From Deltaproteobacteria bacterium (GTDB lineage: Bacteria > Desulfobacterota > Desulfobulbia > Desulfobulbales > SURF-16): a stretch of 52,998 nucleotides of DNA. The notes below the pieces were generated by a model. The model ran no database searches, had not been told where the DNA came from, and saw only the letters and a program-made list of their open reading frames with translations. The position numbers and the translations under genes are program-made. Shown piece by piece: positions 6,489 to 52,998 of this stretch (its first letter is position 1; the number at the start of each line of letters is the position of its first letter). Location: positions 1 through 52,998 of the forward strand of contig JACQYM010000061.1 of assembly GCA_016208225.1 (NCBI GenBank), written 5' to 3'.

Positions 6489-7091
6489 TTTCTCTCTCCT
6501 TGTCTGTTGGTGATGGTGGTTTGCACCCGGTGCACGATGCGGACAGAGGGCCCTTCCGCCGGTATCATCTGCAGGGCGCGCCACCGTTTTTCCTGTCTCA
6601 CGCATGTTGCGGCTCCATCCCGGGAAAATGATGCCGAGTGCGCGGGAAAGTTAGTAAAAATTTAAAGGTCGTATGTTAGGATTTGATAAATGAAGGGATA
6701 AAAAAAGGATAGCAGGCGGTTATCATTTCATGAGCGGTTGGTTAGCCGCGGCATATCATCCCCGGAAAACCGCGGGTCCCATTTGACGGCCGGCCAGGGC
6801 ACCAGATAAAAGAAAAAGAGCAAACAAGGGTGAAAATGTTGATTTCTTACCAAAAAATGCCAAATTTTTCTGGTGTATAGCCCCCCTGTCCTTTACAATT
6901 ATTTCCGGGGCGTCTTGAAAAGTTGGTGGAAGTTGGCATATCCGATGAGCCGTTGTAAAAAAATACTGCAACATCCCATGCGATGCCCGACATAGGGGCG
7001 GTTACGAAATGATGCAAACTGTGATGGTTATTTTGTAACGGCCTCAACAAATCGCCTTACTGATAAGTTGGAAAAAAGAAATTTTCATTTC

Positions 7092-18517: not shown

Positions 18518-19414
18518 ATGGAACTGGGAAGAAAATGGGTGCAGCTGGTTATCGCCTTTCTGACCAACGGCTACTGGGGATTTCCGGCGACCCGGACCAT
18601 TTACCAGGGCCCGCTCAAGGTGGTCTGCGCGCCGGGGCTCAACTGTTATTCCTGCCCGGCCGCCACCACCTATTGTCCCATGGGCGCTCTGCAGCAGCTG
18701 ATGCTCAGCATCCGCTTCAACCTGGAAAACGGCCAGTATTTCCTTGGCTGGTATGTCCTGGGGTGTATCGGGGTGGTGGGCGCCTTTCTCGGCCGGCTTG
18801 TCTGCGGCTGGGCCTGCCCTTTCGGGTTTATCCAGGAGCTGCTGTATAAAATCCCCACCCGTAAATTTTTGGTGCCGCGGCCCCTGCGTTTTGTCAAATA
18901 CGGCATGCTCTTTTTTCTGGTCATCCTGCTGCCCCTGGTGGTGGTCAATGAATTCGGCATGGGCATCACATGGTATTGCAAGTATATCTGTCCGGCAGGC
19001 ACCCTGGAGGCCGGACTGCCCTTGCTCTGGCTGCAGCCGGAGCTCAGGCAGACCGTCGGGCTTCTTTTTTACAACAAGCTGGCCCTCTTGGTTTTTTTTC
19101 TTTCCTGGGCGGTGGTGGCGAGCCGGCCGTTCTGCCGGGTTGCCTGTCCCCTCGGGGCCTTTTACGGGCTGTTCAGCCGGGCCAGACTGGTGAAACTGCA
19201 GCTTGATCCCGCGAAATGCACCAACTGCAAGGCGTGTCATTATGTGTGCCCCATGGGGGTGAAATTTAATGAATCGCCGGAGGATGCGGAATGTATCACC
19301 TGTCTTGCCTGCATGGAGAGGGCCTGCAAATTTGACGCGATAAGCCTGACCGTGGGGGGCATCCCTTTACGGGCCGGCGAGGTACGGAAAATCGTGGTGG
19401 AGAAAACAGAGTAG
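18518..19414 (+). CDS. NapH/MauN-like integral membrane 4Fe-4S (polyferredoxin) protein
   Basis: CYSCPAATTYCPMG, CGWACPFGFIQELL, CKYICPAGTLEAG, CRVACPLGAFYGL, plus the ferredoxin motifs CTNCKACHYVCP and CITCLACMERAC. Confidence 0.85.
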   Translation: MELGRKWVQLVIAFLTNGYWGFPATRTIYQGPLKVVCAPGLNCYSCPAATTYCPMGALQQLMLSIRFNLENGQYFLGWYVLGCIGVVGAFLGRLVCGWACPFGFIQELLYKIPTRKFLVPRPLRFVKYGMLFFLVILLPLVVVNEFGMGITWYCKYICPAGTLEAGLPLLWLQPELRQTVGLLFYNKLALLVFFLSWAVVASRPFCRVACPLGAFYGLFSRARLVKLQLDPAKCTNCKACHYVCPMGVKFNESPEDAECITCLACMERACKFDAISLTVGGIPLRAGEVRKIVVEKTE

Positions 19415-19944: not shown

Positions 19945-21951
19945 TTACATGCGGATCGTGCTGGTGGCCAGGGTGCCGAGGAATGCTTCCACCACATCCG
20001 GATCAAACTGACGGCCCGCCTCGTTTTTCAGCAGATCCACCACCTTGTCCTCAATCCACCCCTGCCGGTACGGCCGGCTTGAGATCAGGGCATCATACAC
20101 ATCGGCAACGGCGAGAATGCGGGCACTGATGTCGATTGCCGTGCCGGCGAGGCCCAGCGGATAGCCTTTGCCGTCATATCGTTCATGGTGCTGGAGGACC
20201 ATGGGGATGATATCGGCATAGGCGTTGATCGGTTCGAGAATCTTGGCGCCGATGGCGGAATGGTCCTTGACCTTGGCATACTCCTCTTCGGTCAGTTTAT
20301 CCGGTTTGTCGAGGATGGCCAGCGGCACGCCGATCTTGCCGATATCGTGCAGCAGTCCTCCCCGGTAGAGCGTTTGCACCTGTTTGTCATCCCATCCCAT
20401 GGTTGTCGCGATTTTAACGGCCATTTCCGCCACCCGTTCCGAATGGCCGGAGGTCCAGGATGATTTCGCATCAACGGTGCGGGCCAGGGCCTCAATGGTG
20501 CCCAGGGTAAGATGCTCCATGTCCTCGATGAGCCGGGCGTTGGACAGGGCCACGGCCAGCTGGTCGGCGAGGTGGCGGGCCTGCAGCAGCTGTTCCTCGG
20601 CAAGCGGCCGCTGTCCGGTGGTGCCCAGGGTCACAAAACCGGCCAGCCTGCTTTTCAGAAATACCGGCAGGAGATGGAAGGTGTCCATGCCCTTGTCGGT
20701 AAAGGCTGCCAGGTGGGCCGGGGTTGTTTCCGGTCTGTCGCACAACAGAGATTGGCTGGTGCCGGCCAGCAGCCGGGCCTCATCCCCGGAGATTTTGATG
20801 GTCTCCATGGCCGGTTTTTCCTGCTGGTGTTTTTGCAGGGAAAAAAGCTGGGCGGTATTTTCCTGCAGCGGGTTGATCAGGCTGAAAGCGACGAGGTCGC
20901 AGTCGAACAGATCGTGCATGTGGGTAAGGGCGGTGTTGATGATTTCGAGTTCCTCAAACTCATCCCCGCTGTTCACCGTCACCCGGCTGAGGAAATCATG
21001 CCTGGCCACGCGCCGGGTCCCTTCGGTCAAGACCTCCACGGGCGCCAGGGTGCGTCTGATATAGATCAGGCTGAGAAGCAGCACGATCCACAGGGAGAGG
21101 AGCACCACCAGCGGGAAAATCTTTTTGAAATGGGCAAGGGGGGCAAGGACTTCGGTTTTAGACTGTCCGAGCACAATCATCCAGGGCTGGGAGAAAAATT
21201 TTGATTTGAGGAAGATGGACCAGTAGCTGGCCAGATATGTTGCGTTGTTGCGCTGGTATTCAAACTGACGGGATACTTCCCCATCCTGCCGGAAGGCCAC
21301 CATGTGGGCCATATTTTCCGGGACCGGATGGGAGCTGACCAGTATTCTTTTGGTCATGTCCAGGACAAAAAGTTCGGTCTGGGAGGGCAGGAAATTCTCA
21401 AAGCCGATGCCCCATACATACGAAGGGATGATCTCGCCGTACAGCAGCTGTTGTTCCTCCGTGCCTGCCTGAAACGGTTTGATGATGAAGAGGCGCGCCG
21501 GCTGATCGGCCTGGGGCTGGGCGACGATGACGGTCTTGCCTTTAACGAGATTCTCCTTTTCAATCGGGACAAGCTCGGGGGGATCAACTATCCGGTCGCC
21601 GAGAATGGGGGTAAAGCCCGCACCGGCGCTGAACCGGCTGATGGCCTTAAAGCGCTGCTTGAGCCGCTCCCCGAAATGGTCGGATGCATTGCTTTGCAAT
21701 CCCGCGATCCGGGCATGGGCGGTCAGCACCTCCAGGTCGGTATCAAGCAGCAGGAGCCGTTCGTACACGGACATGCCATAGGCTTTGGTCTCTTCCTGCA
21801 GCCGTTTGTGACTTTGGAGCGCAAGCTGACGGGTGACCTGATTAAAGGAAAGGATGGTCAAAGCAATCATGGGCAGCAGCGCACAGCAGATAAACAACAG
21901 GAAAAAACGGCGTGCGACTTTGCTGCGAAGAAAACCAGAGGTAAAATTCAT
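19945..21951 (-). CDS. Membrane sensor HD-GYP phosphodiesterase (periplasmic sensor, HAMP, GAF, HD-GYP)
   Basis: Two TM segments flank a ~260 aa extracytoplasmic region, followed by a HAMP-like segment. The C-terminus reads HSERVAEMAVKIA...GGLLHDIGKIGVP...HHERYDGKGYPLGL, the HD-GYP signature. Confidence 0.9.
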   Translation of the reverse strand: MNFTSGFLRSKVARRFFLLFICCALLPMIALTILSFNQVTRQLALQSHKRLQEETKAYGMSVYERLLLLDTDLEVLTAHARIAGLQSNASDHFGERLKQRFKAISRFSAGAGFTPILGDRIVDPPELVPIEKENLVKGKTVIVAQPQADQPARLFIIKPFQAGTEEQQLLYGEIIPSYVWGIGFENFLPSQTELFVLDMTKRILVSSHPVPENMAHMVAFRQDGEVSRQFEYQRNNATYLASYWSIFLKSKFFSQPWMIVLGQSKTEVLAPLAHFKKIFPLVVLLSLWIVLLLSLIYIRRTLAPVEVLTEGTRRVARHDFLSRVTVNSGDEFEELEIINTALTHMHDLFDCDLVAFSLINPLQENTAQLFSLQKHQQEKPAMETIKISGDEARLLAGTSQSLLCDRPETTPAHLAAFTDKGMDTFHLLPVFLKSRLAGFVTLGTTGQRPLAEEQLLQARHLADQLAVALSNARLIEDMEHLTLGTIEALARTVDAKSSWTSGHSERVAEMAVKIATTMGWDDKQVQTLYRGGLLHDIGKIGVPLAILDKPDKLTEEEYAKVKDHSAIGAKILEPINAYADIIPMVLQHHERYDGKGYPLGLAGTAIDISARILAVADVYDALISSRPYRQGWIEDKVVDLLKNEAGRQFDPDVVEAFLGTLATSTIRM

Positions 21952-28033: not shown

Positions 28034-28651
28034 CTACTGGCCGCTTATCATGCGCTCGGCAAGGGCGATGATCGGCATGAGCACCTTCTGGAGGAAACCG
28101 GTATAAAAGAGCGCCAGCAGAATCAGGAAGCCGAAAGGTTCGAGTCTGGCAAAAGCCGCGGCCTGGCGGGGCGGCAGGATACCCATCAGCACTTTGCTGC
28201 CGTCCAGCGGCGGAATCGGCAGCAGGTTGAAAACCGCAAGCACGATATTGATCCAGATGCTGGCCATCACCATCTGCAGCAGGGGAAAGAGAACGGCCTG
28301 GGGAATCACGGCCGCCAAAAAAACAAGGATCTGGGCAAGCAGGCTGCTGGCGATCGCCGTCAGCAAATTGGCCGCCGGTCCGGCCAGCGCCACCCATATC
28401 ATGTCTTTCAAGGGATTTTTGAAATAGCTGGCATTGACCGGCACCGGTTTGGCCCAGCCTATTTTCATGATGATAAAGGCCAGCACGCCCAGCGGGTCCA
28501 GGTGTTTCAGCGGGTTTAAGGTCAGGCGGCCCAGGTTGCTGGCAGTCGGGTCGCCCAGCCGGTAGGCGACCACGCCATGGCTGTACTCATGGATGGTGAG
28601 GGCGAACAGAAAGGGCGGCGCCAGGATGATGATCTGCTGGATGATGTTCAT
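28034..28651 (-). CDS. Site-2 protease family (M50) zinc metalloprotease
   Basis: HEYSHGVVAYRLGDPTA (HExxH), NPLKHLDPLG, and a polytopic membrane profile. Confidence 0.85.
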   Translation of the reverse strand: MNIIQQIIILAPPFLFALTIHEYSHGVVAYRLGDPTASNLGRLTLNPLKHLDPLGVLAFIIMKIGWAKPVPVNASYFKNPLKDMIWVALAGPAANLLTAIASSLLAQILVFLAAVIPQAVLFPLLQMVMASIWINIVLAVFNLLPIPPLDGSKVLMGILPPRQAAAFARLEPFGFLILLALFYTGFLQKVLMPIIALAERMISGQ

Positions 28652-31296
28652 GGTCTATTCTTTTTGTCCCCGGCAAGCAGCGGGTACTCTTTTTCAAGAA
28701 GTTTGATTTCGTCCTCCCGGGTGCGCAGATCCCCGTCCAGTTTTTTTTCCAGCAGATGATTCAGCATGGTTTGGAATATGGGGCCGGTGCGGTAGCCCAT
28801 CTTGATCAAATCTTCCCCGCGCAGGCGGGTTTTCACATGACGCAGCCGGGTGACATAGAGGGAGACAGCCTGCTTGCCCGCTTTGTTCCGGCAAAGCGCC
28901 ATGGCAAAAAGCAGCCCTTCATGGCTCAGTCCCTTCAGCAGCCAGTAGATCTCGCTGGGGCAGAGGTGGGCCCGCCTTTCCAGGACGCGGACAATCCGTT
29001 TTGTCTCGACCTTTTCCTTGATTAACAGATGCGTGTATCTTTCCGGCGCCTCGAATTTCCGGCAGAAGGCGAGCAGCGCCCTGGTCTGGATGCGCGCCGT
29101 CAGGGCCAGCAGATAAACAATCCATGGCTGGCAGCTTTCGGCGAGATAGAGCAGTTTGTGCCAGGAGACGGCCCGCTGCGCCTCCTCCAGTATTTCGGCC
29201 AGCGGCGGGTCGAGAATCAGGGAATGATGCAGGAATTTCAACAGGTCGAACTGGGCCATGCGCTGGATGGCCGGCAGCGGATTCGGTTCGGAAAGGATCA
29301 GTTTGATCTCCTGGAAATAGCGGCGACCGAATTGCTGATCAAACATGTTCATCTTCACCGCATTCTTCAGCTGTTTTTCCGTCAGTTTGCCCAGCGCGAA
29401 ACCCATGCGCTGTTCCAGACGGATGGCCCGGAAAATACGGGTCGGATCCTCCACAAAGCTCAAATTGTGCAGGATGCGGATTTTCCTGTCCTTTAAATCG
29501 TTCTGGCAGTTGAAGAAATCGACCAGGATGCCGAACTTTTCCGGATTGAGGTGAACGGCCATGGCGTTGATGGTGAAGTCGCGCCGGAAAAGATCGAGCT
29601 TGATGGAGCTCAACTCCACCGTGGGCATGGCGGCCGGGTATTCATAGTACTCGAGGCGGGCCGTGGCGATATCGACCTTGAAGCCGCTGGGCATCTTCAC
29701 CACGGCGGTGTTGAATTTGACGTGGGTGCGGATGGTCCCCCCCACCGCCTCGGCCAGTTGTTTGGCAAAGGTGATGCCGTCCCCTTCGACCACAACATCC
29801 AGATCATAATTTTCAATGTGCAGCATCAGGTCGCGGACAAAGCCGCCCACGGCATAGGCGGTGAAATGGTTGTGGTGGGCCACCTCGCCGATGGTCTGCA
29901 GCAGGATGAGCATATCCCGGTTGAGGGATTGGGTGAGCAGATTGGTCAGGTTGCGGTTGCGCTCCCCGGAAGGCTCGCTCTGGGTGGTGTTCAGGCTGGG
30001 CAGGTAGGCCGGGTCATTGACCAGCAGGTTGAACAGGTCCGTTCTGGTAATGACCCCATCCAGGCGGCCGTTTTCCACGATGGGGATAAAGCGCTGCCGG
30101 TGCTCGATGATCAGTTCCTGGATATCGGCCAGGGTGGCGGAAGGCGGCAGGGTGGCGAATTCCGTGGTCATGAATTCGGTGACCGGCAGATGGCCGAGAT
30201 TATGGAAAATCGCCTTGCTGGCATCCCGCCGGGAAAAGAGACCGAGAATGGCGTTGTCCTTCAGGACCGGCAGCATGGTGATGCCGTAGCGGATCAGGAT
30301 GTCGTTGGCCTCCATGATGGTCAGTTCCGGGCCGACGGAAATAATCGGCGAGGACATCAGTTCCCAGGCCTTGCTTTCCGGGCGCACGTGTTTGTGCAGC
30401 AAGCGGATCAGCTTTTCTTCCGCCTCGATCAGGGTCATGTCGTTGATGGTGGCCGCCGCCGCCGAGGCATGGCCGCCCCCATTGAATTCCATGGCGATCA
30501 TGCCGACATTGACCTCCGGGATGCGGCTCCTGGCAATGAGGTAAATCCGTTCCCCCATGCTGGCCAGGGCAAAGATGACATTGAGGTTTTCCATGCTCAT
30601 GAACTGGCGGACAATGAGGGAAAATTCGTCAATGTAATGGCTGGTGGTGATGCGGGTCACGGTGATCGGAATGGACTGGATGGTGTAGGTGGTGGCGGAT
30701 TTGATCAGTTCGTTGAGCAGGGTGATATCGTTGCTGGTCAGCTCGTGGGTGATGTACTGGGTAACGGTGGACAGTTGCGCCCCGCGCTCCATCAACCAGG
30801 CCATGGCCCGCAGGTCGGCGGCGGCGGTGGTGCTGAAGGTGAACGAGCCGGTATCTTCATGTTCCGCCATGGCCAGCAGGGTCGCCTCCTCCCGGCTGAT
30901 GTCGATGTGCCGCTCCTGAAAGATCTCGATGAAGACCGTGGCGGTGGAGCCGACCGGCCGCACCACTTCAACGTCGCCCTTCATGTCGCCGGGGGCGTCG
31001 GGGTGGTGATCGTAGAGGTGAACCTCAATGCCGGGATTGTTGAGGCATTTTGCGAAGTTGCCGATACGCGCCACCTGCCTGGTGTCCACGACGATCAGTT
31101 TTGTTACTTTTTCCAGCTCAATATTCTTGATGCGCTGGAAATCGTAAATCATCACGGACTGGACAAAAAAGCGGCGCAGATTTTTTTCCTGGGAACCGGA
31201 AAAAACCAGCACGGCCTCGGGGTAGAGCTTTTTGGCGGCAACCATGGAGGCCATGCTGTCAAAGTCGGCGTTTAGATGCGTGGTAATGACTTCCAT
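28648..31296 (-). CDS. DHH-DHHA1 / CBS-pair / poly(A) polymerase-type tRNA nucleotidyltransferase fusion protein
   Basis: The N-terminus HLNADFDSMASMVAA plus LYDHHPD gives the DHH domain. A CBS pair sits in the middle. AYAVGGFVRDLML...DLDVVVEG...RDFTINAM is the nucleotidyltransferase head. 4-nt overlap with the downstream M50 gene. Confidence 0.85.
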   Translation of the reverse strand: MEVITTHLNADFDSMASMVAAKKLYPEAVLVFSGSQEKNLRRFFVQSVMIYDFQRIKNIELEKVTKLIVVDTRQVARIGNFAKCLNNPGIEVHLYDHHPDAPGDMKGDVEVVRPVGSTATVFIEIFQERHIDISREEATLLAMAEHEDTGSFTFSTTAAADLRAMAWLMERGAQLSTVTQYITHELTSNDITLLNELIKSATTYTIQSIPITVTRITTSHYIDEFSLIVRQFMSMENLNVIFALASMGERIYLIARSRIPEVNVGMIAMEFNGGGHASAAAATINDMTLIEAEEKLIRLLHKHVRPESKAWELMSSPIISVGPELTIMEANDILIRYGITMLPVLKDNAILGLFSRRDASKAIFHNLGHLPVTEFMTTEFATLPPSATLADIQELIIEHRQRFIPIVENGRLDGVITRTDLFNLLVNDPAYLPSLNTTQSEPSGERNRNLTNLLTQSLNRDMLILLQTIGEVAHHNHFTAYAVGGFVRDLMLHIENYDLDVVVEGDGITFAKQLAEAVGGTIRTHVKFNTAVVKMPSGFKVDIATARLEYYEYPAAMPTVELSSIKLDLFRRDFTINAMAVHLNPEKFGILVDFFNCQNDLKDRKIRILHNLSFVEDPTRIFRAIRLEQRMGFALGKLTEKQLKNAVKMNMFDQQFGRRYFQEIKLILSEPNPLPAIQRMAQFDLLKFLHHSLILDPPLAEILEEAQRAVSWHKLLYLAESCQPWIVYLLALTARIQTRALLAFCRKFEAPERYTHLLIKEKVETKRIVRVLERRAHLCPSEIYWLLKGLSHEGLLFAMALCRNKAGKQAVSLYVTRLRHVKTRLRGEDLIKMGYRTGPIFQTMLNHLLEKKLDGDLRTREDEIKLLEKEYPLLAGDKKNRP

Positions 31297-38112: not shown

Positions 38113-39630
38113 TTATCCTTTTCTGCTGCTTTTCTTGATTGCCATGGCCGCGAAATCACGAAACAGACTCAGGGCCTTGATGCTGTTTTTGTTCAGTTTC
38201 GGTCTGCCCGTTTTGCGGTCCATATAAAGCAGGGCGATGGCCTTATTGTTGACAACGATCGGGAAGAGGTAAACGGTTCTGTCTTTGACGAGATAATGGA
38301 TATTGTCCGGAAAAGCCCTGGTGGTATCGGCTTCTATGGCAATATCCTTGCACAGCTTCATGGCGCGCGGGATGGCCTGGTCCGCATTGGACATCGGCTG
38401 TTCAAAATTGCTGATATCCGCGGCATCAATGTCGCCCAGGCCAAAGCGGCCGGTCAGCACGGTTCTGGTGGCCTGGATGCTCAGCACGCACAGAATGACC
38501 CGGTCAAAGCCGATGCCCCGGTAAATGGCTTCGAGCAGGTTGGCATAAAATTCATTGAGCTGAAAGGGTCCCATCAGCGTCTCGGTCATCTCCATGATGA
38601 ACTGGTTGATGGACTTGTCGGTGGAAGGCAGCTCGCCCAGTTCCTCCACTTCCTGCCATCCCTGCTTTGTCCCGTCCGCCCGCATTTCTTCCTGCCCCGG
38701 GGGGATGGGCTCAAATCTGGCGGCCTTTTCCAGTTTGCTGTGGATTTTCAGTTTCGACAGGCCGTAGCGGATGGAGTCGGAGATGTCCTGGGATGCCTCC
38801 ACGCCTTTATGCAGGAGAGCCAGGGCCTGTTCCTGATTGATGGCGATGATCTCTCCGTACCTGCCCAGCAGTTCGCTGGTATCTTCCTCGTTGCAGACCA
38901 TGTCGACAAAGCGGTTGCTGAAATCGGCGAGGTTCTGCAGGTAGCCTTCCGAGTCGTAACTGTTTTTGGGCTTGGCCGGGTGAATGTCCATGGAGATGAC
39001 GATCTTGTGTGAGAGATTCCAGAATTTGGCAATCTCCTGGCCCAGATCGGCAAAGGTCAGATTTTCGAGCAGTTCCCGGGTCGCCGTTTCCTCCGGGATG
39101 CCTTTGGCCAGGCTGCTTTCTATCTTTTTATAGATATCGGGCATGTAGATGAAGGTGATAATCTTGCCCAGATTGTGGAGAAGCCCGCAGATAAAGGCCT
39201 CTTCCGGCAGCACGTTCAGTTTTTTTTCGTTGACCAGGTCCCGGCACTGCAGGGCGCTGAGAAAGGAGCGGGTCATCAGCTTGCTGATGCCTTCTTTTTC
39301 GACCCCCGCCTTGATGAAATTTTCAAAAATGGCGATGCCGGTGGCCAGGTCCCGCACCGCGTCAAAGCCGAGAATGGTGACCGCCTTGGAAATGGAGCTG
39401 ACCGGTTGGCCCAGCGAGTAATAGGCGGAATTGACCACCTGCAGGACCTTGTTGGTCAGGGAATAGTCTTTCAGGATGACGCGTGACAGGTCGTAGGATG
39501 TGCTGCGGCTGCTGTGTACCAGAGAGATGAGCTCCTGCACGTGGCTTGACATGGCGGGCAGCGCGTTGATGTTCATCTTGGCAAAGATTTCCGCCAGTTT
39601 CCCTGATGCGGGGTTTTTTGATTCCGTCAT
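38113..39630 (-). CDS. HDOD domain protein with C-terminal GAF-like domain (paralog of 7092-8558)
   Basis: LPAMSSHVQELISL...ILKDYSLTNKVLQVVNSAYYSLGQPVSSISKAVTILGFDAVRDLA...GLLHNLGKI. The C-terminus reads FDRVILCVL...TVYLFPIVVNNKAIALLYMDR. Collinear with the 7092 protein along its full length. Confidence 0.85.
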   Translation of the reverse strand: MTESKNPASGKLAEIFAKMNINALPAMSSHVQELISLVHSSRSTSYDLSRVILKDYSLTNKVLQVVNSAYYSLGQPVSSISKAVTILGFDAVRDLATGIAIFENFIKAGVEKEGISKLMTRSFLSALQCRDLVNEKKLNVLPEEAFICGLLHNLGKIITFIYMPDIYKKIESSLAKGIPEETATRELLENLTFADLGQEIAKFWNLSHKIVISMDIHPAKPKNSYDSEGYLQNLADFSNRFVDMVCNEEDTSELLGRYGEIIAINQEQALALLHKGVEASQDISDSIRYGLSKLKIHSKLEKAARFEPIPPGQEEMRADGTKQGWQEVEELGELPSTDKSINQFIMEMTETLMGPFQLNEFYANLLEAIYRGIGFDRVILCVLSIQATRTVLTGRFGLGDIDAADISNFEQPMSNADQAIPRAMKLCKDIAIEADTTRAFPDNIHYLVKDRTVYLFPIVVNNKAIALLYMDRKTGRPKLNKNSIKALSLFRDFAAMAIKKSSRKG

Positions 39631-39771: not shown

Positions 39772-40752
39772 ATGATAAAAAATGAGGCGCCCAAGGCCCT
39801 GTTGAAACTGGTGGCTGGCGGAGAAGAACAGACATGGCCGCTGGCCGGCAGAACCACGTACCGCCTGGGACGGGGGGAGGGGAGTGATATTCTCCTGCCC
39901 TATCCGTGGGTGTCCCGCCAGCACGCCATGGTGCAGGTGGAGGCCAATGCCAGCCATAATATCGTCGATCTCGGCAGCGCCAACGGCACCTTTGTGAACA
40001 ACAGACGGGTCTATACCCCCACCAGATTAAGCAGCAACGACCGGGTCAGGATCGGCAGATCGGAGCTGATTTTTCTGCAGGAAAATTTGCTGCCGGCCGA
40101 TACCGGAGATGAATCGGACGCGACCGGCGATGAAACGGTCGCCTTTCTGCAGAAAAACCGGATGACGATTCTGGTCTGCGATATCCGGGGGTTCACCTCG
40201 CTGGCCGAAGAAATCGGCGCCGGCCGCATCTCGGCGTTTCTCGCCCTGTGGACCAGGGAGGTGGCGGCGGTGATCCGGAAAAACGGCGGCCAGGTGGACA
40301 AATTCATCGGCGACGCGGTGCTGGCCGTGTGGCCCGGCGGGGCGGATTTCACCGCGGTGGCCATGGCCCTGCTGTCGGCGCTCGAGGTCAGCATGGTGAC
40401 GGCAAGACTCGGCCGCAGCATGGAGGGGGGCGCCAGGGAATTGAAGATAGGGGCTGCGGTCAATACCGGCGAAGCGGTGATGGGCAATATCGGCGTTGAC
40501 GGGCAGCGGGATTCCACCATTGTCGGCGATGCGGTGAATGTGGCCTTCCGGCTGCAGGACATGACATCCCGGCAGAAAACGGATCTGCTGCTCGGGCACG
40601 ACAGTTTTCTGCAGCTGCCGGATGCGGGCGCCTGTTTCACCCCGGGGGAATTCACGGTCAAGGGCAAGGCGGGGTCGCTGGCCGCCCACAGCGCCACGTT
40701 TGCCGATGTGCGGCGCTATCTTGCGGCAAGGCGGTCGATGCTGAAAAAATAG
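39772..40752 (+). CDS. FHA domain fused to a class III adenylate/guanylate cyclase
   Basis: FHA: YRLGRGEGSDILLPYPWVSRQHAMV...DLGSANGTFVNNRRV. Cyclase: ILVCDIRGFTSLAE, KFIGDAVLAVW, TIVGDAVNVAFRLQD. Confidence 0.9.
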   Translation: MIKNEAPKALLKLVAGGEEQTWPLAGRTTYRLGRGEGSDILLPYPWVSRQHAMVQVEANASHNIVDLGSANGTFVNNRRVYTPTRLSSNDRVRIGRSELIFLQENLLPADTGDESDATGDETVAFLQKNRMTILVCDIRGFTSLAEEIGAGRISAFLALWTREVAAVIRKNGGQVDKFIGDAVLAVWPGGADFTAVAMALLSALEVSMVTARLGRSMEGGARELKIGAAVNTGEAVMGNIGVDGQRDSTIVGDAVNVAFRLQDMTSRQKTDLLLGHDSFLQLPDAGACFTPGEFTVKGKAGSLAAHSATFADVRRYLAARRSMLKK

Positions 40753-40912
40753 CTGCGGGAAATGACATTTGTCAAATTATGTGACATAGTTGGAGATGAG
40801 CGGGCAATCATTGTATTGGTCCGGTGGTGTTTTGTGACAATTTGCCGGCATGGATACGGAGAAACGATCAGTCAATTAACTTCGGCACAGTCAGGGGTGA
40901 TAGGGGTGGATT

Positions 40913-41674
40913 ATGGCTGTTTGGGCGATTAAGCTGCATGACAAGGTTGTGAAGCAGTTTGCGATTGATGAGGGGGAACGGTTGGTCATCGGCCGCAGTT
41001 CCGAAGCGGATGTGGTTGTTGATAATACGGCCATATCCCGCAAGCATACGGCTCTTGAAAGAAGGAACGGCGTCTATTTCCTGGAGGACCTCGGCAGTCT
41101 GAACGGCACCATGGTCAACGGCAAAAAGATAGATTCCTGCGTGCAGCTTTTTGATGAAGATGTGGTCGAGATCGGCAAATTTCTGCTGATTCGGGCCGAG
41201 GCGTTGAAAGATGCCAAGTTCTCGTCCCAGAGCGCGCCGCTGGATTATGGCGATGAAACGGTTTTCGTCAAGCGGGATGCCGGGGCCGCGGAGAAGGCCA
41301 GGGAAAAGGTGAAGGCCCTCCACAGCCTGACCGTGATCAAAGGGGCGGGCAGCCCGGCGGATGTGCCGCTGCATGGCCGGAGCAGCGTCAAAATCGGCAA
41401 GGACATCAATTGCGATCTGCGGATCTCCGGCTGGTTTGTGGCCCAGGCCCAGTGCTATGTCATTAACCGGGACAAGAAGTTTTATCTCGTGCCGCAGCGC
41501 AGCTGGGTGAAGACCAGCGTGAACGGCATGCCGGTCAAGGAGGAGCGGGAACTGAACAAGGGGGATGTCATTGAAATCCGCGGAGTGCAGATCCGTTTTG
41601 TCTGGCCGCCATGCCTGTCATGCCTTTTCATTGAAATATCGAGAGACTGCAGCAATGACGCTGCAACCCTGTGA
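40913..41674 (+). CDS. Tandem FHA-domain protein
   Basis: FHA 1: LVIGRSSEADVVVDNTAISRKHTAL...DLGSLNGTMVNGKKI. FHA 2: VKIGKDINCDLRISGWFVAQAQCYV...TSVNGMPV...GDVIEIRGVQIRF. Confidence 0.85.
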   Translation: MAVWAIKLHDKVVKQFAIDEGERLVIGRSSEADVVVDNTAISRKHTALERRNGVYFLEDLGSLNGTMVNGKKIDSCVQLFDEDVVEIGKFLLIRAEALKDAKFSSQSAPLDYGDETVFVKRDAGAAEKAREKVKALHSLTVIKGAGSPADVPLHGRSSVKIGKDINCDLRISGWFVAQAQCYVINRDKKFYLVPQRSWVKTSVNGMPVKEERELNKGDVIEIRGVQIRFVWPPCLSCLFIEISRDCSNDAATL

Positions 41675-41727
41675 TCGCGGGCTTTCCGGCAGCGAGCACG
41701 GTTTTCACTGTTTGCGGGATAGGAACC

Positions 41728-43083
41728 ATGCTGAGCCGGTTTTTTAAATGGGGGAGCAAGGGGGTGAAGACGGAGGAGCCCGGGGAGGTTTCGCCGCCCG
41801 CGATGGCGACCCGGGTGTTGCCTGCGCAGCAGCCTGCCGCCGAGCATATCGATCACCTGAACTGGCTGCCCGGCGAGATTATCAATGACCGGTACCGCGT
41901 CGAGCGCATCTTCAGCGGCGCCATGGGCAAGGTGTACATTGCCGAGCATCTGGCCTGGGGCGTGCTGATGGCCATCAAGGTGCCCAGGCCCGAGGTGTGG
42001 GCCGACCGGGAAGGGCTGCAGCGCATCCTGCGGGAGGCCAACGGCTGGATCAGCCTTGGCCTGCATCCGAATATCGCCTCCTGCTACTATGTCCGCACCA
42101 TTTCCAGAATACCCCATATCTTCATCGAATATGTGTCCGGCGGCACCCTGGAGGAATGGATCAACCGGGGCCGCTGCCAGGACATGCGCACCGCCCTGTC
42201 CATTGCCATCCAATTCTGCAACGGCATGGAATACACCCATGCCAAGGGATTCATCCATCGCGACATCAAGCCGCAGAATATCCTGCTCACCAAGGACGGG
42301 CTGGTAAAAATCACCGATTTCGGCATCCTGCGTCTGATCCGGGACAACAGCCGGGAGGTTGATGCGCCGCAGAAGAACGGGCAGAACAAAAACGCCACCG
42401 TCGGTTTCCGCGGCACCCCCAACTACGCCTCGCCGGAACAGCTGCGCAATGCCCATCGGGTGGACCGGCGTACCGATATCTTTTCCTTCGGTCTCTGCCT
42501 GTGGATGATGTTCTGCGGCAAAAGGCCTTATAAGCAGAATCTGGAAGGCACCTGCCCCGAACCGGTGGCGGTAAAACCGGAAATCGTCCTGCCCGAGAGT
42601 CTGAAAGCGATTTTAAAAAAATGCGTGGCCTTCAAGCCGGATGATCGGTTCCCGGATTTTACCGAACTGAAGGAGTCGCTGAATCAGGTTTATCTGGAGC
42701 TGTTTCATGTGGCCTGCCCCTATGCCATTATGGGGAAAATCGATCTCCGCGCCGAAAATATGAATAACCGGGCCGTGTCGCTGGCGGAACTGGGGAGGTA
42801 TCAGGAGGCGGAATCGGTCCTGATGCACACCCTGGAAATCAATGAAACGATGATCGAGGCCCTTTATAACTCCTACATGCTGAAATGGTGCAAAGGCGCG
42901 GAAAGTCCGGAGCGGCTGCTGCGCAGCATCGAGGCGAGCAAGAAACGGTTCCCCAAGCTCTCCATCTTTGATGATCTGGAAAAAGAGATTGCCGAATACA
43001 TCGAGCATGCGGACGACGGGCGCGGCCCAGAGCGGACCAGGGAGCCCCAGCTGCTCCCAGCTGCGCAGCTCTGTCCATCATAA
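41728..43083 (+). CDS. Hanks-type Ser/Thr protein kinase with TPR-like C-terminal region
   Basis: GAMGKVYIAEH...AIKVPRP, HRDIKPQNILL, KITDFG, GTPNYASPEQ. Start assumed at ATG 41728; the ORF opens at GTG 41671. Confidence 0.85.
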   Translation: MLSRFFKWGSKGVKTEEPGEVSPPAMATRVLPAQQPAAEHIDHLNWLPGEIINDRYRVERIFSGAMGKVYIAEHLAWGVLMAIKVPRPEVWADREGLQRILREANGWISLGLHPNIASCYYVRTISRIPHIFIEYVSGGTLEEWINRGRCQDMRTALSIAIQFCNGMEYTHAKGFIHRDIKPQNILLTKDGLVKITDFGILRLIRDNSREVDAPQKNGQNKNATVGFRGTPNYASPEQLRNAHRVDRRTDIFSFGLCLWMMFCGKRPYKQNLEGTCPEPVAVKPEIVLPESLKAILKKCVAFKPDDRFPDFTELKESLNQVYLELFHVACPYAIMGKIDLRAENMNNRAVSLAELGRYQEAESVLMHTLEINETMIEALYNSYMLKWCKGAESPERLLRSIEASKKRFPKLSIFDDLEKEIAEYIEHADDGRGPERTREPQLLPAAQLCPS

Positions 43084-44152
43084 TATTCTGACTCTGCTGC
43101 AGAACAGGCGTCTGACGGAGTGTTACGATACCCTGCTGGTCAGCTGGGGCAATGAACGGTTCAAGAAGGATAAATTTTATTATAAAATCTACGAGCAGCT
43201 GCTGCCCGAGGGCAGAAAGCGGGCCCTGTCCGCGGTACAGCGGGTCATGACCCATGCCGGCGCCGGCGGGCCTGCCGTTCTGCTGGCCAGCCTGCCGGCC
43301 CGCAAACTGCTCTTTTCCGCGGCGCCCGGCATGAAAGTGCATGTGTGCAATGTGACGGAAAAAAAACCGGGAGTACTTTTTGTCGAGACCGGCAGCCGCG
43401 TCACCGCCCTGGCCGCGGGGAGTTCCTCTCTTGCCGTGGGGCAGGAAAACGGTGCGGTGCTGTTCCGTTCCTTTAAGAGCGGGACGGAGAATACGGTGCC
43501 GGTGGGGAAAAGCGCCGTGCAGGCGCTCGCCTTCAGCACTGACGGCAGGCAGCTGCTGGCCGGGCTGGCGGACGGCGGCATCGTGCTGGTGGAAACGGCC
43601 GGGGGAAAATTAAGGAAGATCGCCTCCGGCGTGGGCGGCGGGATCCGCGTTGTCGGCTGGGCAAAGGATTTCTCCTTTGCCGTGGCCTGCGAGGATGGAT
43701 CGCTGCGTTTTTACAACGGGAAATCAGGGGAGTGTCAGCGGGAGATCGCGGCCCATGCGCTGCCGACGGCCTCCATGTGGGTCAGTGGCGACGGGACAAA
43801 AATCGCAACCGGCAGTGCCGACCGGCTGGTCAGGGTCTGGGACTGGATGACGGGACGCTGCCTGCAGACGATGGAGGGCCATGAAGACGCGGTAACCTCC
43901 GTGCTGCTGCTGGAGGACGGGCAGACAGTGGTCGCCGGTTTCGAGGATGATATCATCAAGCTCTGGAACTGGCAGACCGGCAAATGCACCCAGATTCTTG
44001 ATGCCCGGGGAGACGGGGTGCGCAGTCTGGCGCCGGGGCCGAAGCCCCACACCTTTCTTTCCGGCCGCCAGGACGGGGCCATTGTCCTGTGGACCATCAT
44101 TTATTACCTTGAGTTTGAGGACGGGATGCCCTCCGCCCTGCGCAGCTATTGA
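42968..44152 (+). CDS. WD40-repeat protein; 5' end uncertain (possibly the frameshifted C-terminal part of the kinase)
   Basis: Repeats end in VRVWDWMTGRC, IKLWNWQTGKC and IVLWTI. The first ~38 codons overlap the kinase 3' end in another frame and look non-protein-like. Confidence 0.7.
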   Translation: MMIWKKRLPNTSSMRTTGAAQSGPGSPSCSQLRSSVHHNILTLLQNRRLTECYDTLLVSWGNERFKKDKFYYKIYEQLLPEGRKRALSAVQRVMTHAGAGGPAVLLASLPARKLLFSAAPGMKVHVCNVTEKKPGVLFVETGSRVTALAAGSSSLAVGQENGAVLFRSFKSGTENTVPVGKSAVQALAFSTDGRQLLAGLADGGIVLVETAGGKLRKIASGVGGGIRVVGWAKDFSFAVACEDGSLRFYNGKSGECQREIAAHALPTASMWVSGDGTKIATGSADRLVRVWDWMTGRCLQTMEGHEDAVTSVLLLEDGQTVVAGFEDDIIKLWNWQTGKCTQILDARGDGVRSLAPGPKPHTFLSGRQDGAIVLWTIIYYLEFEDGMPSALRSY

Positions 44153-44242
44153 CCCCATGCCGGGGAGCGCAACCGGATAGAAGGGTATATCTACAATTAC
44201 TGGGGCCTGGCCCTCACGCCGCTAAAATCAGGGAGAGGCAGC

Positions 44243-45010
44243 ATGCTGCGGTTTCTGAAAAATTTGTTCAAAGCTCCTCAGGAGGCCCTTGCCTGTTTCG
44301 GCCGCACCGACACCGGCATGGTGCGCAAAAATAATGAGGATAATTTTGCCATTCTGGCGGAGCGGAATCTTTTCGTGGTTGCCGACGGCATGGGCGGCCA
44401 TCAGGCCGGTGAAATCGCCAGCCGGGTGGCAACGGAGAATCTGATCGATTTTTTTTCAGCGGAGAAAATCAGGGAGATCCGGGGCAATCCCGCCGCCATC
44501 CAGCACGGGCTCATCGCCAGTTTCTACCGGACCAATGAGAGGGTGATGGACATGGCGGCGGAGCAGGCGGAGCTGCATGGCATGGGCTGCACCCTGGTGG
44601 CCTGCCTGGTCGATGGCGATGCCGCCTATATCTGTCATGTCGGCGATGTCCGCGCCTATCTTGATGACGGGTATATTTTAAAGCAGCTCACCAATGACCA
44701 TTCCCTGGTCGTTGATCAGGCCGCTGGCCTGAATGGGACGGGGGCGGCAAGCGGGGCGGGCCGCAATATCATCACCCGGGCCATCGGCTTTCCCTTTGCC
44801 GAAGACCCGGAATTTCACCGGGTGGCGCTGACCCCGGGCCATAAGATCCTGCTCTGTTCGGATGGTCTGTGGGGCATGGTGGGTGATGAGGAGATGCAGC
44901 AGATCCTGAGCAGCGCCGGCTCGCCCGAGGAGGCGTGTGACAATCTGGTGCGCCGGGCGAATGAGGCGGGCGGCAAGGACAATATCACGGCGGTGGTCGT
45001 CTATGTGTAA
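44243..45010 (+). CDS. PP2C-family Ser/Thr protein phosphatase
   Basis: GRTDTGMVRKNNEDNF, VADGMGGHQAGEIAS, LLCSDGLW, GGKDNITAVVV. Confidence 0.9.
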   Translation: MLRFLKNLFKAPQEALACFGRTDTGMVRKNNEDNFAILAERNLFVVADGMGGHQAGEIASRVATENLIDFFSAEKIREIRGNPAAIQHGLIASFYRTNERVMDMAAEQAELHGMGCTLVACLVDGDAAYICHVGDVRAYLDDGYILKQLTNDHSLVVDQAAGLNGTGAASGAGRNIITRAIGFPFAEDPEFHRVALTPGHKILLCSDGLWGMVGDEEMQQILSSAGSPEEACDNLVRRANEAGGKDNITAVVVYV

Positions 45011-50523: not shown

Positions 50524-50599
<76 letters not shown>

Positions 50600-50605
50600 G
50601 AATAT

Positions 50606-50650
50606 GAAAGGGGCTGCAGCCGCAAAAGCTGCAGCCCCTTTCTTTTATTG
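50606..50650 (+). terminator. Rho-independent terminator after tRNA-Phe
   Basis: GAAAGGGGCTGCAGC (50606-50620), loop CGCAAAA, GCTGCAGCCCCTTTC (50628-50642), followed by TTTTATT. Confidence 0.85.
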
Positions 50651-50810
50651 CTTTATTCCCCTTTCTTGCCGTTGCAACTGCGCATCTTCCAGGGGGTCCT
50701 TGGCAAAGTCGGGTGGTAACTTGACGCCTCCCCCCGCCCCGACCAGCCCCTGTTTCGCGCAGCTTCTTATTGACTTCTGAGTGTCTCCGTTTGATAATGC
50801 TGAAGTGATT

Positions 50811-52998
50811 ATGGAAACCGAAGATCTGCAGCAGGCGTATCTTTTCCAGGGGCTCCCCGCCTCTGAATTGCAGCAGGTTGCCGCGGCAGCCGGGGACGCA
50901 ACCTATGAACCCGGCGAACATATTTATAAAAGGGGAGATAAGGGCGAGACTTTTTACATCATTGCCGCCGGCAAGGTCGAACTGATCATTGAAAAACAAG
51001 ACGGCACCGCCTCTGTGGTCGGCCAGGTGAGCGCCGGCGGCCATTTCGGCGAGGTTTCCCTGCTGACCGGCCATTGCCGGTCCCTCACGGTGCGGGCCCT
51101 TACCAGGGTCCGGCTCTTCTCTTTTGACCGGGAAAAATTTGAAACAGTGCTCCTGGCCAATCCCCTGCTGCATCGGAACCTTGATAAAACTCTGGCCGAA
51201 CGGCTGGTGGCTGCATCCGGCGGCTGGCATGATGCCGATCTCGCCGGCAACTCGCTTGGCGGCTCTTCCCAGACTCTTTTTCCCGCGCCCAGAGCGGCAG
51301 ACCGGGCCGACCGGCAGGCAGCAGCGCCGGGGATCGGCGGCGGGCAGCTGCATGATATCGATCTGGCGAAAAAAATAAGCAAGCAGATCAACCAGTTTGC
51401 CGCCGGGACCAGGCCGTTGATCATCAGCGGTGAGTCCGGCACCGGCCGGCGGCTGGCGGCAAAACAGATCCATCTGCACGGCGCCGGCAAATCAATGCCG
51501 TTTATTGAACTGGACCTCCGCCAGTTTGATCCGTGGATCTGGGAGGACAAGCTTTTCGGTTATGAGCAGGACGCCTTTCCCTATTCCTCGGGCCGGCAGC
51601 TCGGCATCCTGGAGCAGATCAATAACGGCACGGTGGTCCTCTACCATGCCGAGAAACTGAGCAAAGAGCTGCAGCAGAAAATATATGAGGCGGTGACCCG
51701 AGGAAAATTTTCCACCAACGACGGCGGGGTGGAGCAGGTACTGCGCGCCCGTCTGATTCTGATCACCAACGCCCCGCTCGACACCCTGGGTCGGGAATCA
51801 GTTTTTATTCCGGAGTTCGCCGCCCTGTTTGCGGGGCAGCAGTTTCTGCTTCCGCCGCTGCGGCAACACAAGCGGGATATTCTGCCGCTGGTCGAGTATT
51901 ATCTGCAGCGCTACAGTGCCGAGTACAACAAGCGGGTGACGAAAATATCCCAGGACGCCCTCGGCCTGCTGATGAAGTATGACTGGCCCGGCAATCTGAC
52001 CGAGCTCTCCAATGTCATGCAGCGGGCGGTGATGGTGGCCTCGCAGGACGAGATCATCTCCGAGCAGATTTTTCTGGGCCTGCCGCGCACCGAGGGCAAA
52101 CTGGTCTATAACCTGCTGCGGCTGCCATGGGTGCGGGAGCTCATTGAGCACCGGTTCTTCCCTGGGCTCCCCAGGATGGCCATAACCGTTCTCTTTTGCC
52201 TGGTGGTGCTGATTCTTTTCGCCGGGCCGCAGGAAGCGGAGAAAAATCTCGGCATTACCCTGTGCTGGTATATCGGCTGGCCCCTGCTCATGATTTCGTT
52301 CTTTTTTCTGCCCCGCTTCTGGTGCACCCTCTGCGCCCTTTCCGCGCCGGGCAAGTGGCTGCAGAAATTCATCCGGCCCGCCCGCCGCCTGCCGCCGGTG
52401 ATCGCCTCCCATTCAGGCTGGATCATGGCCGTGCTGTGTCTCGTGGTCTTCTGGGTGGAGATCGTCTTCAACGCCTATGAGAGCCCGCGGCTCACGGGAG
52501 CGATCCTGCTCTCCATCAGCAGCGGCGCCCTGCTGTTCAGCGTCATGTTTGAACGATACACCTGGTGCCGCTATGTCTGCCCGCTCGGCGCGCTCAATGC
52601 CGTTTTTTCCATGCCCTCCATTCTCGAGGTGCGCGCCAACCGGCAGATATGCCTCAATCAGTGCCGCGATCATGTCTGCTACCGGGGCACGGCTGGGGCG
52701 CCGGGCTGTCCCATGTTCCGCCACCCGTTCATGGTTGACAACAATAAGGATTGCATCCTGTGCGGCCGCTGCATTAAAAACTGCCGGCTGCGCTCGACGC
52801 AGCTGAATCTGCGTCTGGCGCCGCAGGAACTCTGGTCCATCCAGACCCCGCTGTTGTCCGACAGTTTTCTGATCGTTTCGCTCGGGGCGATTTATTTTCT
52901 GGTGGCGCTGCACCGGCCTTCCCTGGATTTTCTCCACGGGCAGACCGCTCTTCCCCTCACCGGTCTGCACATGGACCCCGCTGTGGCCGGCAGTTTGC
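50811..52998 (+). CDS. cNMP-binding domain / degenerate sigma-54-type AAA+ module / NapH-like membrane 4Fe-4S domain fusion protein (3' partial; absent from ORF track)
   Basis: Hand translation from ATG 50811 stays open to the window end (729 codons).
- cNMP domain: LFQGLPASELQQVAAAAGDATYEPGEHIYKRGDKGETFYIIAAGKVELI...FGEVSLLTG...RSLTVRA.
- AAA+ module: LIISGESGTGRRLAAKQIH, GTVVLYHAEKL, RARLILITN, PLRQHKRDILPLVEYYL, WPGNLTELSNVMQRAV.
- Membrane domain: TM helices with CRYVCPLGALNAVFS, CPMFRHP, CILCGRCIKNC. Confidence 0.85.
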   Translation, partial: METEDLQQAYLFQGLPASELQQVAAAAGDATYEPGEHIYKRGDKGETFYIIAAGKVELIIEKQDGTASVVGQVSAGGHFGEVSLLTGHCRSLTVRALTRVRLFSFDREKFETVLLANPLLHRNLDKTLAERLVAASGGWHDADLAGNSLGGSSQTLFPAPRAADRADRQAAAPGIGGGQLHDIDLAKKISKQINQFAAGTRPLIISGESGTGRRLAAKQIHLHGAGKSMPFIELDLRQFDPWIWEDKLFGYEQDAFPYSSGRQLGILEQINNGTVVLYHAEKLSKELQQKIYEAVTRGKFSTNDGGVEQVLRARLILITNAPLDTLGRESVFIPEFAALFAGQQFLLPPLRQHKRDILPLVEYYLQRYSAEYNKRVTKISQDALGLLMKYDWPGNLTELSNVMQRAVMVASQDEIISEQIFLGLPRTEGKLVYNLLRLPWVRELIEHRFFPGLPRMAITVLFCLVVLILFAGPQEAEKNLGITLCWYIGWPLLMISFFFLPRFWCTLCALSAPGKWLQKFIRPARRLPPVIASHSGWIMAVLCLVVFWVEIVFNAYESPRLTGAILLSISSGALLFSVMFERYTWCRYVCPLGALNAVFSMPSILEVRANRQICLNQCRDHVCYRGTAGAPGCPMFRHPFMVDNNKDCILCGRCIKNCRLRSTQLNLRLAPQELWSIQTPLLSDSFLIVSLGAIYFLVALHRPSLDFLHGQTALPLTGLHMDPAVAGSL

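Follow-up and report, generated by a model that had tools for sequence, protein, structure and literature searches.

In bacterial enhancer-binding proteins (bEBPs), the AAA+ domain converts the state of a sensor domain into an oligomeric state. CcoG and NosR are membrane-anchored polyferredoxins with cysteine motifs at the membrane interface, and the CNG/HCN channels and MloK1 are cyclic-nucleotide-gated membrane proteins. Elements resembling all three kinds of system are joined in a single chain by an open reading frame (ORF) at the end of a 52,998-nucleotide stretch of DNA (the window) from a Deltaproteobacteria bacterium of the Desulfobulbales (SURF-16; assembly GCA_016208225.1, contig JACQYM010000061.1, positions 1 to 52,998 of the forward strand). 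This ORF (50811..52998, + strand) begins with an ATG at 50811, remains open for 729 codons and runs past the window end. It encodes an N-terminal domain for binding cyclic nucleoside monophosphates (cNMP), a bEBP-type AAA+ domain that has lost its catalytic residues, and a membrane module with iron-sulfur (Fe-S) motifs. The reading favored here, with a confidence somewhat better than even, is that the product is a one-component, signal-gated membrane redox effector and not a transcription factor.

The open frame from ATG 50811 to the window end, which had been reported in a preliminary description of the window, was confirmed by translation. The best homologue, P0001, is 91% identical to the product and 870 amino acids (aa) long, which implies that ~141 C-terminal residues lie beyond the window and that the ORF covers the first ~84% of a protein of ~870 aa; full-length homologues range from 860 to 880 aa. 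A Pfam scan identified four domains in the one chain (cNMP_binding, Sigma54_activat, AAA_lid_14 and Fer4_5), and 116 of the 120 best homologues have the same four domains, the same architecture and a length of 860–880 aa. More than 100 close homologues share this architecture, mostly in Desulfobulbales, and many clusters at 50% identity are found elsewhere. Given that the window end cuts the ORF and leaves its own C-terminus unseen, one might suspect a pseudogene, or separate genes united by an artefact of assembly or fusion; however, the uninterrupted architecture and length recur in independent assemblies, including the closed chromosomes of Desulfopila sp. IMCC35008 and Desulfosediminicola flagellatus, and all domains are under strong purifying selection. 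This explanation was rejected as effectively refuted and retains almost no probability, and with over 100 orthologues intact, a stop or frameshift that splits the domains into separate genes is unlikely. The ORFs listed on the minus strand of this region (50535-51479, 50954-51550, 51798-52412, 52106-52471 and 52413-52970) are most simply frame shadows, because it is the + frame that carries the four Pfam domains.

The features of the ORF described below are all on the + strand. The N-terminal cNMP-binding domain (50901..51155, residues 31-115) matches Pfam PF00027 with an E-value of 4.9e-22 and a score of 78 bits against a cut-off of 27.5, and also matches the regulatory (R) subunits of PKA at about 1e-23. 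Its phosphate-binding cassette, FGEVSLLTGHCRSLTVRA (51045-51098), contains the characteristic Glu and Arg-Ser residues, which in the family (n = 116) are conserved as Glu81 in 116/116, Arg90 in 101/116 and Ser91 in 110/116 sequences; the CAP-type cNMP-binding fold first assigned to residues 1-125 is upheld. Judged from these residues, the cassette is intact, which makes the binding of cAMP or cGMP plausible. The domain is followed by a low-complexity linker (51222..51353, residues 138-181) that is disordered in the AlphaFold model (predicted local distance difference test, pLDDT, 25-33) and shows a mean pairwise identity of 20%.

The AAA+ domain consists of an alpha/beta subdomain (51366..51806, residues 186-332), which matches Pfam PF00158 (Sigma54_activat) with an E-value of 5.5e-21, and a lid subdomain (51861..52067, residues 351-419), which matches PF25601 (AAA_lid_14) with an E-value of 8e-20. 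P0001 aligns to A. aeolicus NtrC1 (1NY6) with zero gaps over residues 186-410 (~225 residues) at 32-34% identity, the predicted structure (AlphaFold model) gives target-normalised TM-scores of 0.84-0.87 to NtrC1 and PspF in Foldseek, and the Foldseek search with the full-length model returned AAA+ matches only. The state of the bEBP motifs was read on the phmmer alignment of P0001 to NtrC1 together with the motif positions in the window protein; the corresponding PspF positions, counted on the PspF sequence, are N64, R162, R168, R180 and R227. Walker A, which is GESGVGK in bEBPs, reads GESGTGRR (51429-51452), with Lys213 replaced by Arg; the glutamate-switch position, an Asn in bEBPs (PspF N64), is occupied by Asp235 (within 51507-51524); and the L1 loop, which carries GAFTGA in bEBPs, reads DAFPYS (51570-51587, residues 254-259). 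Walker B reads VVLYHAE (51633-51653), in which Tyr278-His279 replace the bEBP Asp-Glu, and the two former arginine-finger positions (PspF R162 and R168) are Ile333 and Leu339 (within 51804-51830). Arg351 corresponds to PspF R180 in the PPLRER motif, and in the lid motif WPGNLTEL (51984-52007) Thr397 stands at the position of the sensor II Arg (PspF R227, in GNIREL).

These comparisons bear out the Lys-to-Arg change in Walker A and the replacement of Walker B and GAFTGA that had been noticed in the preliminary description, for which an alignment with NtrC1 and PspF had been proposed as a check; the catalytic residues are lost, and canonical Walker and GAFTGA residues are not seen. The losses extend beyond those first listed to both arginine fingers, the sensor II Arg and the glutamate-switch Asn. 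In the family, the individual changes differ in reach. The losses outside Walker A are family-wide, whereas the Walker A position is Lys in 63 and Arg in 58 of 121 sequences and is split by clade, so that the Lys-to-Arg change is limited to one clade. Both arginine fingers and the Walker B Asp-Glu are lost in 120/120 close members: His stands in place of the Walker B Glu in 110/120, Glu itself occurs there in 0/120, and the finger positions are mostly aliphatic, with Arg in 0/120. Asp235 is invariant among the same 120 homologues, and their L1 loop has a conserved pattern of its own, x-x-F-P-[FY]-x (Phe in 103/120), in which Pro occupies the position of the GAFTGA Thr in 116/120. The glycine-rich P-loop, PPLR-x-[HR]-K-x-D and WPGN-x-x-EL are retained. 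Among 92 distant fused representatives, GAFTGA was found in none, the second arginine-finger Arg is kept in five and the acidic Walker B pair in at most one.

Mean pairwise identity is 66% in the lid and 45% in the alpha/beta subdomain, far above that of the linker, which by this comparison indicates that the AAA+ domain is under clear purifying selection as a maintained pseudo-ATPase and is not a decaying one. In 24 of the 92 distant representatives, Walker A has the form GxxGTEK, in which Glu replaces the last Gly of the P-loop; this substitution would probably block nucleotide binding, and the AAA+ domain may therefore be purely structural in that subclade.

A genuine membrane-anchored sigma-54-dependent activator, as the NCBI annotation "sigma 54-interacting transcriptional regulator" would have it, agrees with the Pfam matches to PF00158 and PF25601 and with the database names, and is contradicted by the sequence. 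A Thr-to-Pro change in GAFTGA has been reported to inactivate NifA (PMC4641369), and the sensor II Arg is missing along with the two arginine fingers and the Walker B Asp-Glu. The NCBIfam equivalog models for bEBPs matched the AAA+ core only, and none reached its cut-off (at most 129 bits against cut-offs of 443-1000; the best, AtoC, scored 129 bits against 714). No helix-turn-helix (HTH) family was found in the window protein by Pfam or in the precomputed Pfam assignments of the full-length homologues, in agreement with what was first noted; where bEBPs would carry the HTH, the lid passes directly into the first transmembrane (TM) helix. This candidate was accordingly rejected as having hardly any chance of being correct, the early statement that the protein is not a transcription factor holds, and the label of sigma-54 transcription regulator is, on sequence grounds, almost certainly wrong for this family.

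A different link to sigma-54 would be a membrane-tethered antagonist, in which the dead AAA+ domain poisons bEBP rings or sequesters bEBPs under the control of cNMP and redox state. The very closely kept bEBP fold, as measured by the identity and TM-scores to NtrC1, and the retained structural signatures PPLR-x-[HR]-K-x-D and WPGN-x-x-EL speak for such a subunit, but the GxxGTEK subclade and deletions in L1 are unexpected for a subunit that fits into a bEBP ring, neither a bEBP nor a sigma-54-dependent operon was linked to the gene in a conserved way at the loci examined, and 12 invariant cysteines and nine TM helices would be left unexplained. An antagonist is therefore regarded as improbable.

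The membrane module begins at TM1 and occupies the remainder of the ORF within the window (52101..52997, TM1 to TM5), where it is marked by five hydrophobic TM segments, a Fer4_5 match (Pfam, residues 565-600, E 1.6e-5) and a series of cysteine motifs. WCTLCA (52320-52337; a WCxxC motif with C505 and C508) follows TM2, and CRYVCP (52566-52583; a CX3CP motif with C586, C590 and P591) follows TM4. These are succeeded by CX3CX4CX9CP (52650-52712; C614, C618, C623 and C633) and by a canonical CX2CX2CX3C (52752-52784; C648, C651, C654 and C658). All 12 cysteines are invariant in 116 family members. AlphaFold models of the 91%-identical homologue contain nine TM helices, four before the Fe-S insert and five after it (pLDDT 77 for the whole protein; pLDDT 80 and a predicted TM-score, pTM, of 0.82 for the module alone). 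Since the N-terminal domains must be cytoplasmic and two and then four helices precede the motifs, all 12 cysteines would by topology lie on the cytoplasmic face. The early account of at least four TM helices agrees with the five found in the window; its description of the 4Fe-4S domain as membrane-embedded does not, as the Fe-S motifs are placed on the cytoplasmic side, in an insert that separates TM4 from TM5. To judge from the motifs, the module most likely holds two [4Fe-4S] clusters. NCBIfam profiles place a partial match to NapH/MauN (E 9e-11) over the CX3CP and Fe-S region, corresponding to the last ~100 model positions, and a local match to NosR (E 1.6e-4 over 50 residues); no flavin mononucleotide-binding domain (FMN_bind) was found in Pfam scans of the window protein and the module. 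The resemblance to the polyferredoxin encoded at 18518-19414 in the window, which had also been pointed out, is real but weak, and is confined to 102 residues of the CX3CP and Fe-S region (22% identity, E 6e-6).

The membrane part alone was used to search 1.84 billion cluster representatives (50% identity), which retrieved 287 clusters with E < 1e-30; at the looser limit of E < 1e-10, the number rose to 827. Among the best 150, 148 representatives were newly retrieved; 78 of these combine cNMP, AAA and membrane parts, 33 have AAA and membrane parts (some of them fragments, some with other sensors), and 37 consist of the membrane module alone. In the distant members, some of which come from metagenome-assembled genomes (MAGs) of Chloroflexota and Omnitrophota, the N-terminal sensor is variously cNMP, cNMP+GAF, HisKA+receiver, FHA+GAF, GAF alone or AIM24+cNMP, and the dead AAA+ domain and the membrane module remain constant behind it. 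In P0156, P0227 and P0252, HisKA and a receiver precede this constant part, with no HATPase_c reported; P0213 has FHA+GAF and P0207 has AIM24+cNMP, a range of inputs that is unusually broad for one output. The stand-alone module, of ~435-465 aa, occurs in Clostridium, Desulforamulus, Desulfotomaculum, Pectinatus and Chloroflexi, and in an alignment with 29 such homologues 11 of the 12 cysteine columns are conserved in 30/30 sequences and the twelfth in 29/30. The retention of these cysteines argues from the alignment that the membrane module is an autonomous functional unit.

In a species-representative genome set (one genome per species), 169 loci were found, with two copies in some genomes. 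The best 80 of the 169 belong almost entirely to Desulfobulbales (Desulfobulbaceae and Desulfocapsaceae), with carriers that include Desulfopila, Desulforhopalus, Desulfoprunum benzoelyticum, Desulfosediminicola flagellatus, Desulfofustis and Desulfocapsa. The homologues are named in the databases as "sigma 54-interacting transcriptional regulator," "polyferredoxin" or "cyclic nucleotide-binding domain-containing protein"; this is a large and unstudied bacterial family, the sequences of which are already public under generic or misleading names.

Exchanged sensors in front of a constant unit of dead AAA+ domain and membrane module follow the pattern of input domains placed before an output. 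The gated membrane redox effector is the best reading because the sensors swap while that unit stays constant, because the membrane module also exists alone, and because few parts are as well conserved as the lid and its junction with TM1. In the proposed mechanism, the N-terminal domain would bind cAMP or cGMP as the input. The AAA+ domain, derived from a sigma-54 activator ATPase, would no longer hydrolyze ATP or contact sigma-54 and would instead relay the signal by oligomerisation or allostery; its glycine-rich P-loop is intact and may still hold a nucleotide, and the lid would transmit the signal through a highly conserved junction of ~15 residues that continues straight into TM1. As the output, the nine-helix module, with a four-cysteine site formed by WCxxC and CX3CP and two ferredoxin-type cysteine clusters, would move electrons in the manner of the NapH/NosR/CcoG class of membrane polyferredoxins, for which the quinone pool and a metal ion located at the membrane interface are possible partners. 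The protein would thus follow a one-component logic in which a membrane redox module serves as the output in place of an HTH. The early proposal, in which a non-hydrolysing AAA+ switch gates a membrane redox protein, is in this respect retained as what we infer to be the best account; the part that does not stand is its partnership with a cyclase encoded at 39772, which is considered below.

Several observations weigh against this reading. The NapH/MauN match is partial and, at 41 bits, falls far short of the cut-offs of 213-234 (TIGR02163 and NF007013); the module has no match to TIGR02745 (CcoG) or FixG_C up to an E-value of 10; the first Fe-S motif, CX3CX4CX9CP, is atypical; and the Fe-S insert is modeled at low confidence (pLDDT about 40). 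A Foldseek search of the module model against PDB gave no meaningful match (best E 0.1 and TM about 0.15, to generic helical transporters), so that the modeled membrane fold is one without a solved structural relative. The genomic context does not point to a substrate either. The neighbors of the fused gene differ between lineages and were unrelated genes in six look-ups, which include the 90%-identical L009; when the flanks of 80 loci were clustered, only housekeeping synteny (prs, leuB, rsmG, hisD and mlaA) within one lineage was recovered; and no conserved functional partner gene emerged from the 80 clustered loci and the six look-ups. In literature searches on the domain combination, on pseudo-ATPase bEBPs and on Desulfobulbaceae polyferredoxins, no publication describing this architecture was found, in line with the initial remark that a characterized member with this architecture is not known. 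Finally, sequence alone does not distinguish a membrane module that acts as an output from one that acts as a redox sensor.

This last point leads to the alternative of a signaling scaffold that integrates redox state and cNMP, in which the Fe-S module senses the quinone pool, ferredoxin or a metal and the pseudo-AAA+ ring forms the output surface that recruits or releases a cytoplasmic partner. NosR/NirI-type membrane polyferredoxins have historically been described as regulators, and NCBIfam NF046105 is still named "transcriptional regulator NosR." The conserved L1 motif of the close family and the retained P-loop are compatible with such a surface, as is the lack of an operon partner to indicate a substrate. 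On the other hand, conservation of the L1 motif does not extend to the wider fused family, where the motif is partly deleted, the stand-alone module with all 12 cysteines argues for a function of the module itself, and the swapped N-terminal sensors already provide inputs; a scaffold of this kind is thus considered unlikely, though less so than the antagonist of sigma-54 transcription.

The gated redox effector, if taken further, leads to a more specific and more tentative proposal, which is given appreciably less than even weight: that these proteins may form a new class of second-messenger-gated membrane redox enzymes, in which a bEBP AAA+ ring was co-opted to serve, without catalysis, as an allosteric gate that switches electron flow directly at the Desulfobulbales membrane, without transcription. 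The gate may be a nucleotide-stabilised hexamer on top of six polyferredoxin membrane modules, and in the relatives, phosphorylation, GAF ligands or FHA targets would switch electron flow in place of cAMP/cGMP.

The variability of the neighborhoods is illustrated by the individual loci. In the look-ups, the fused gene adjoins a hydrogenase-maturation cluster in one MAG; elsewhere, its neighbors encode rubrerythrin, an RND pump or HtpG. In L001 (6393-22401, a Desulfobulbaceae MAG), a member lies between hypF and the hypCDE/NiFe-hydrogenase genes with a convergent GGDEF gene, an adjacency that is probably a coincidence, as other lineages lack it. The L009 copy adjoins htpG and thiC and not the tRNA-Phe gene that precedes the ORF in the window.

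The cyclase with which the ORF product had been paired is encoded by 39772-40752 (+), the product of which contains FHA and a weak Guanylate_cyc match (class III cyclase, E 1.6e-7). This gene opens an FHA/Ser-Thr kinase/WD40/PP2C signaling cluster (39772-45010, +), in which it is followed by genes for a double-FHA protein (40913-41674, +), a Ser/Thr kinase (41671-43083, +), a WD40 protein (42968-44152, +) and a PP2C phosphatase (44243-45010, +). It lies 10 kb from the ORF and is separated from it by housekeeping-type genes, the tRNA-Phe gene and a strong terminator, and no cyclase was found near the fused gene at the orthologous loci examined or among the neighboring ORFs scanned at L009. The pairing of the ORF at 50811 with this cyclase as the receiver of its signal was rejected because of the distance, the intervening genes and the lack of conserved linkage.

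Upstream of the ORF, the tRNA-Phe gene (50524-50599, identified by ARAGORN) is followed by a terminator-like hairpin (50606..50642, +) with a 15-bp stem, 10 G-C pairs and a T tract, which appears to mark the upstream boundary of the transcription unit, and by a sigma-70-like promoter match, TTGACT-17-GATAAT (50770..50798, +), which agrees with the consensus at 10/12 positions and is a consensus match only. From these three elements, the gene at 50811 looks like a separate transcription unit. The −10 hexamer of the match stops 12 nt before the ATG at 50811, which would make the mRNA leader very short or absent, and no obvious Shine-Dalgarno sequence is visible at 50770-50811.

The stand-alone module has a neighborhood of its own. 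A small gene abuts it closely on the upstream side in four of the five Firmicute genomes that were looked at (L089:5444-5980, L091:5596-6000, L095:4613-5017 and L096:4500-4985), and overlaps it in one of them. The product of the small gene is YtkA/FixH-like in one genome (E 2e-14); in the other three, it combines a signal peptide and a TM anchor with a stretch rich in His, Met and Asp (DPHAGHDMSTM...). Two-component or ArsR regulators are encoded near the stand-alone module in two of them. Together, the small gene and the module look like a pair for handling metal, possibly copper, that recalls CcoG and CcoH; for the fused family, the metal chemistry at which this hints is no more than a lead.

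The rest of the window is rich in signaling genes. The products encoded at 7068-8558, 38113-39630 (−), 19945-21951 (−), 28648-31296 (−), 8562-10112 and 11881-13416 (−) are two HDOD proteins, a HAMP protein with an HD-GYP-type HD_5 domain, a DHH-DHHA1-CBS-PolyA_pol fusion, a CutA1-TPR fusion and, in addition, subunit I of a cytochrome bd oxidase.

The architecture is well supported and widespread, and the function is the part that we infer. Several hundred database entries bear the name "sigma 54-interacting transcriptional regulator" despite failing the sequence tests for such a protein, and censuses of sigma-54 regulators that count PF00158 matches would over-count these proteins. For the evolution of AAA+ proteins, the family provides a bEBP-type domain that has been kept under purifying selection after losing hydrolysis and sigma-54 contact and that is wired to a membrane protein, and it bears on how pseudo-ATPases evolve as signaling relays. 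If the gating is true, a cyclic nucleotide would exert direct post-translational control over a membrane electron-transfer module in sulfate- and sulfur-cycling Desulfobulbales, the energy metabolism of which is of geochemical interest. The mechanism of NapH, NosR and CcoG is poorly understood, and a regulated version with a ligand-dependent on/off state would be a useful experimental handle.

Among known systems, the bEBPs (NtrC1, PspF and NifA; PF00158) share with this family the AAA+ alpha/beta and lid fold, an exchangeable N-terminal sensor, the glycine-rich P-loop, the PPLR motif and WPGN-x-x-EL. The family differs from them in lacking GAFTGA, the Walker B Asp-Glu, the arginine fingers and the sensor II Arg, in having Asp for the glutamate-switch Asn, and in carrying a nine-TM Fe-S module at the C-terminus in place of the HTH; by sequence, it is bEBP-like in its modular layout and fails every functional test of membership among bEBPs. 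VpsR, TyrR and NtrX are bEBP-like regulators that act with sigma-70 or without GAFTGA. All three appeared among the sequence, fold or family matches of the ORF protein or its homologue, and VpsR (PDB 7v2b), TyrR and NtrX likewise reuse the bEBP AAA+ domain without sigma-54 activation; however, these are soluble transcription factors that retain a DNA-binding HTH, whereas the present family is integral to the membrane and has no DNA-binding domain.

On the membrane side, the family resembles NapH/MauN (TIGR02163, NF007013), with which it shares Fer4_5 and a CX3CP where a TM helix ends on the cytoplasmic side, with a ferredoxin-like cysteine-rich domain after it. Set beside the NapH/MauN pattern of two CX3CP and two 4Fe-4S motifs flanking four TM helices, the family shows one CX3CP (C586-P591), a WCxxC(A/P) as the first motif, and one canonical and one atypical Fe-S motif; four TM helices precede the Fe-S insert, and five C-terminal TM helices and ~430 N-terminal cytoplasmic regulatory residues are extra. 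At the loci examined, the neighbors are variable and unrelated, and neither a nap or mau operon nor a NapG partner was present. CcoG/FixG and NosR belong with this family to the broad class of membrane-anchored polyferredoxins that have cysteine motifs at the membrane interface. CcoG is a demonstrated cupric reductase according to a passage in PMC8456105 (citing Marckmann 2019). The family lacks the TIGR02745 match and the FixG_C domain of CcoG/FixG as well as the periplasmic FMN-binding domain of NosR, to which its match is local, over 50 residues only. As judged from these profiles, the family resembles NapH, NosR and CcoG in motif layout, and it lies under all of their thresholds and is without their partners or extra domains. 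With the CNG/HCN channels and bacterial MloK1, the family has in common a CAP-type cNMP domain that would covalently control a membrane effector; here, by contrast, the effector is an Fe-S protein rather than an ion channel, the sensor is located N-terminal to the membrane part, and a pseudo-AAA+ domain stands between the two.

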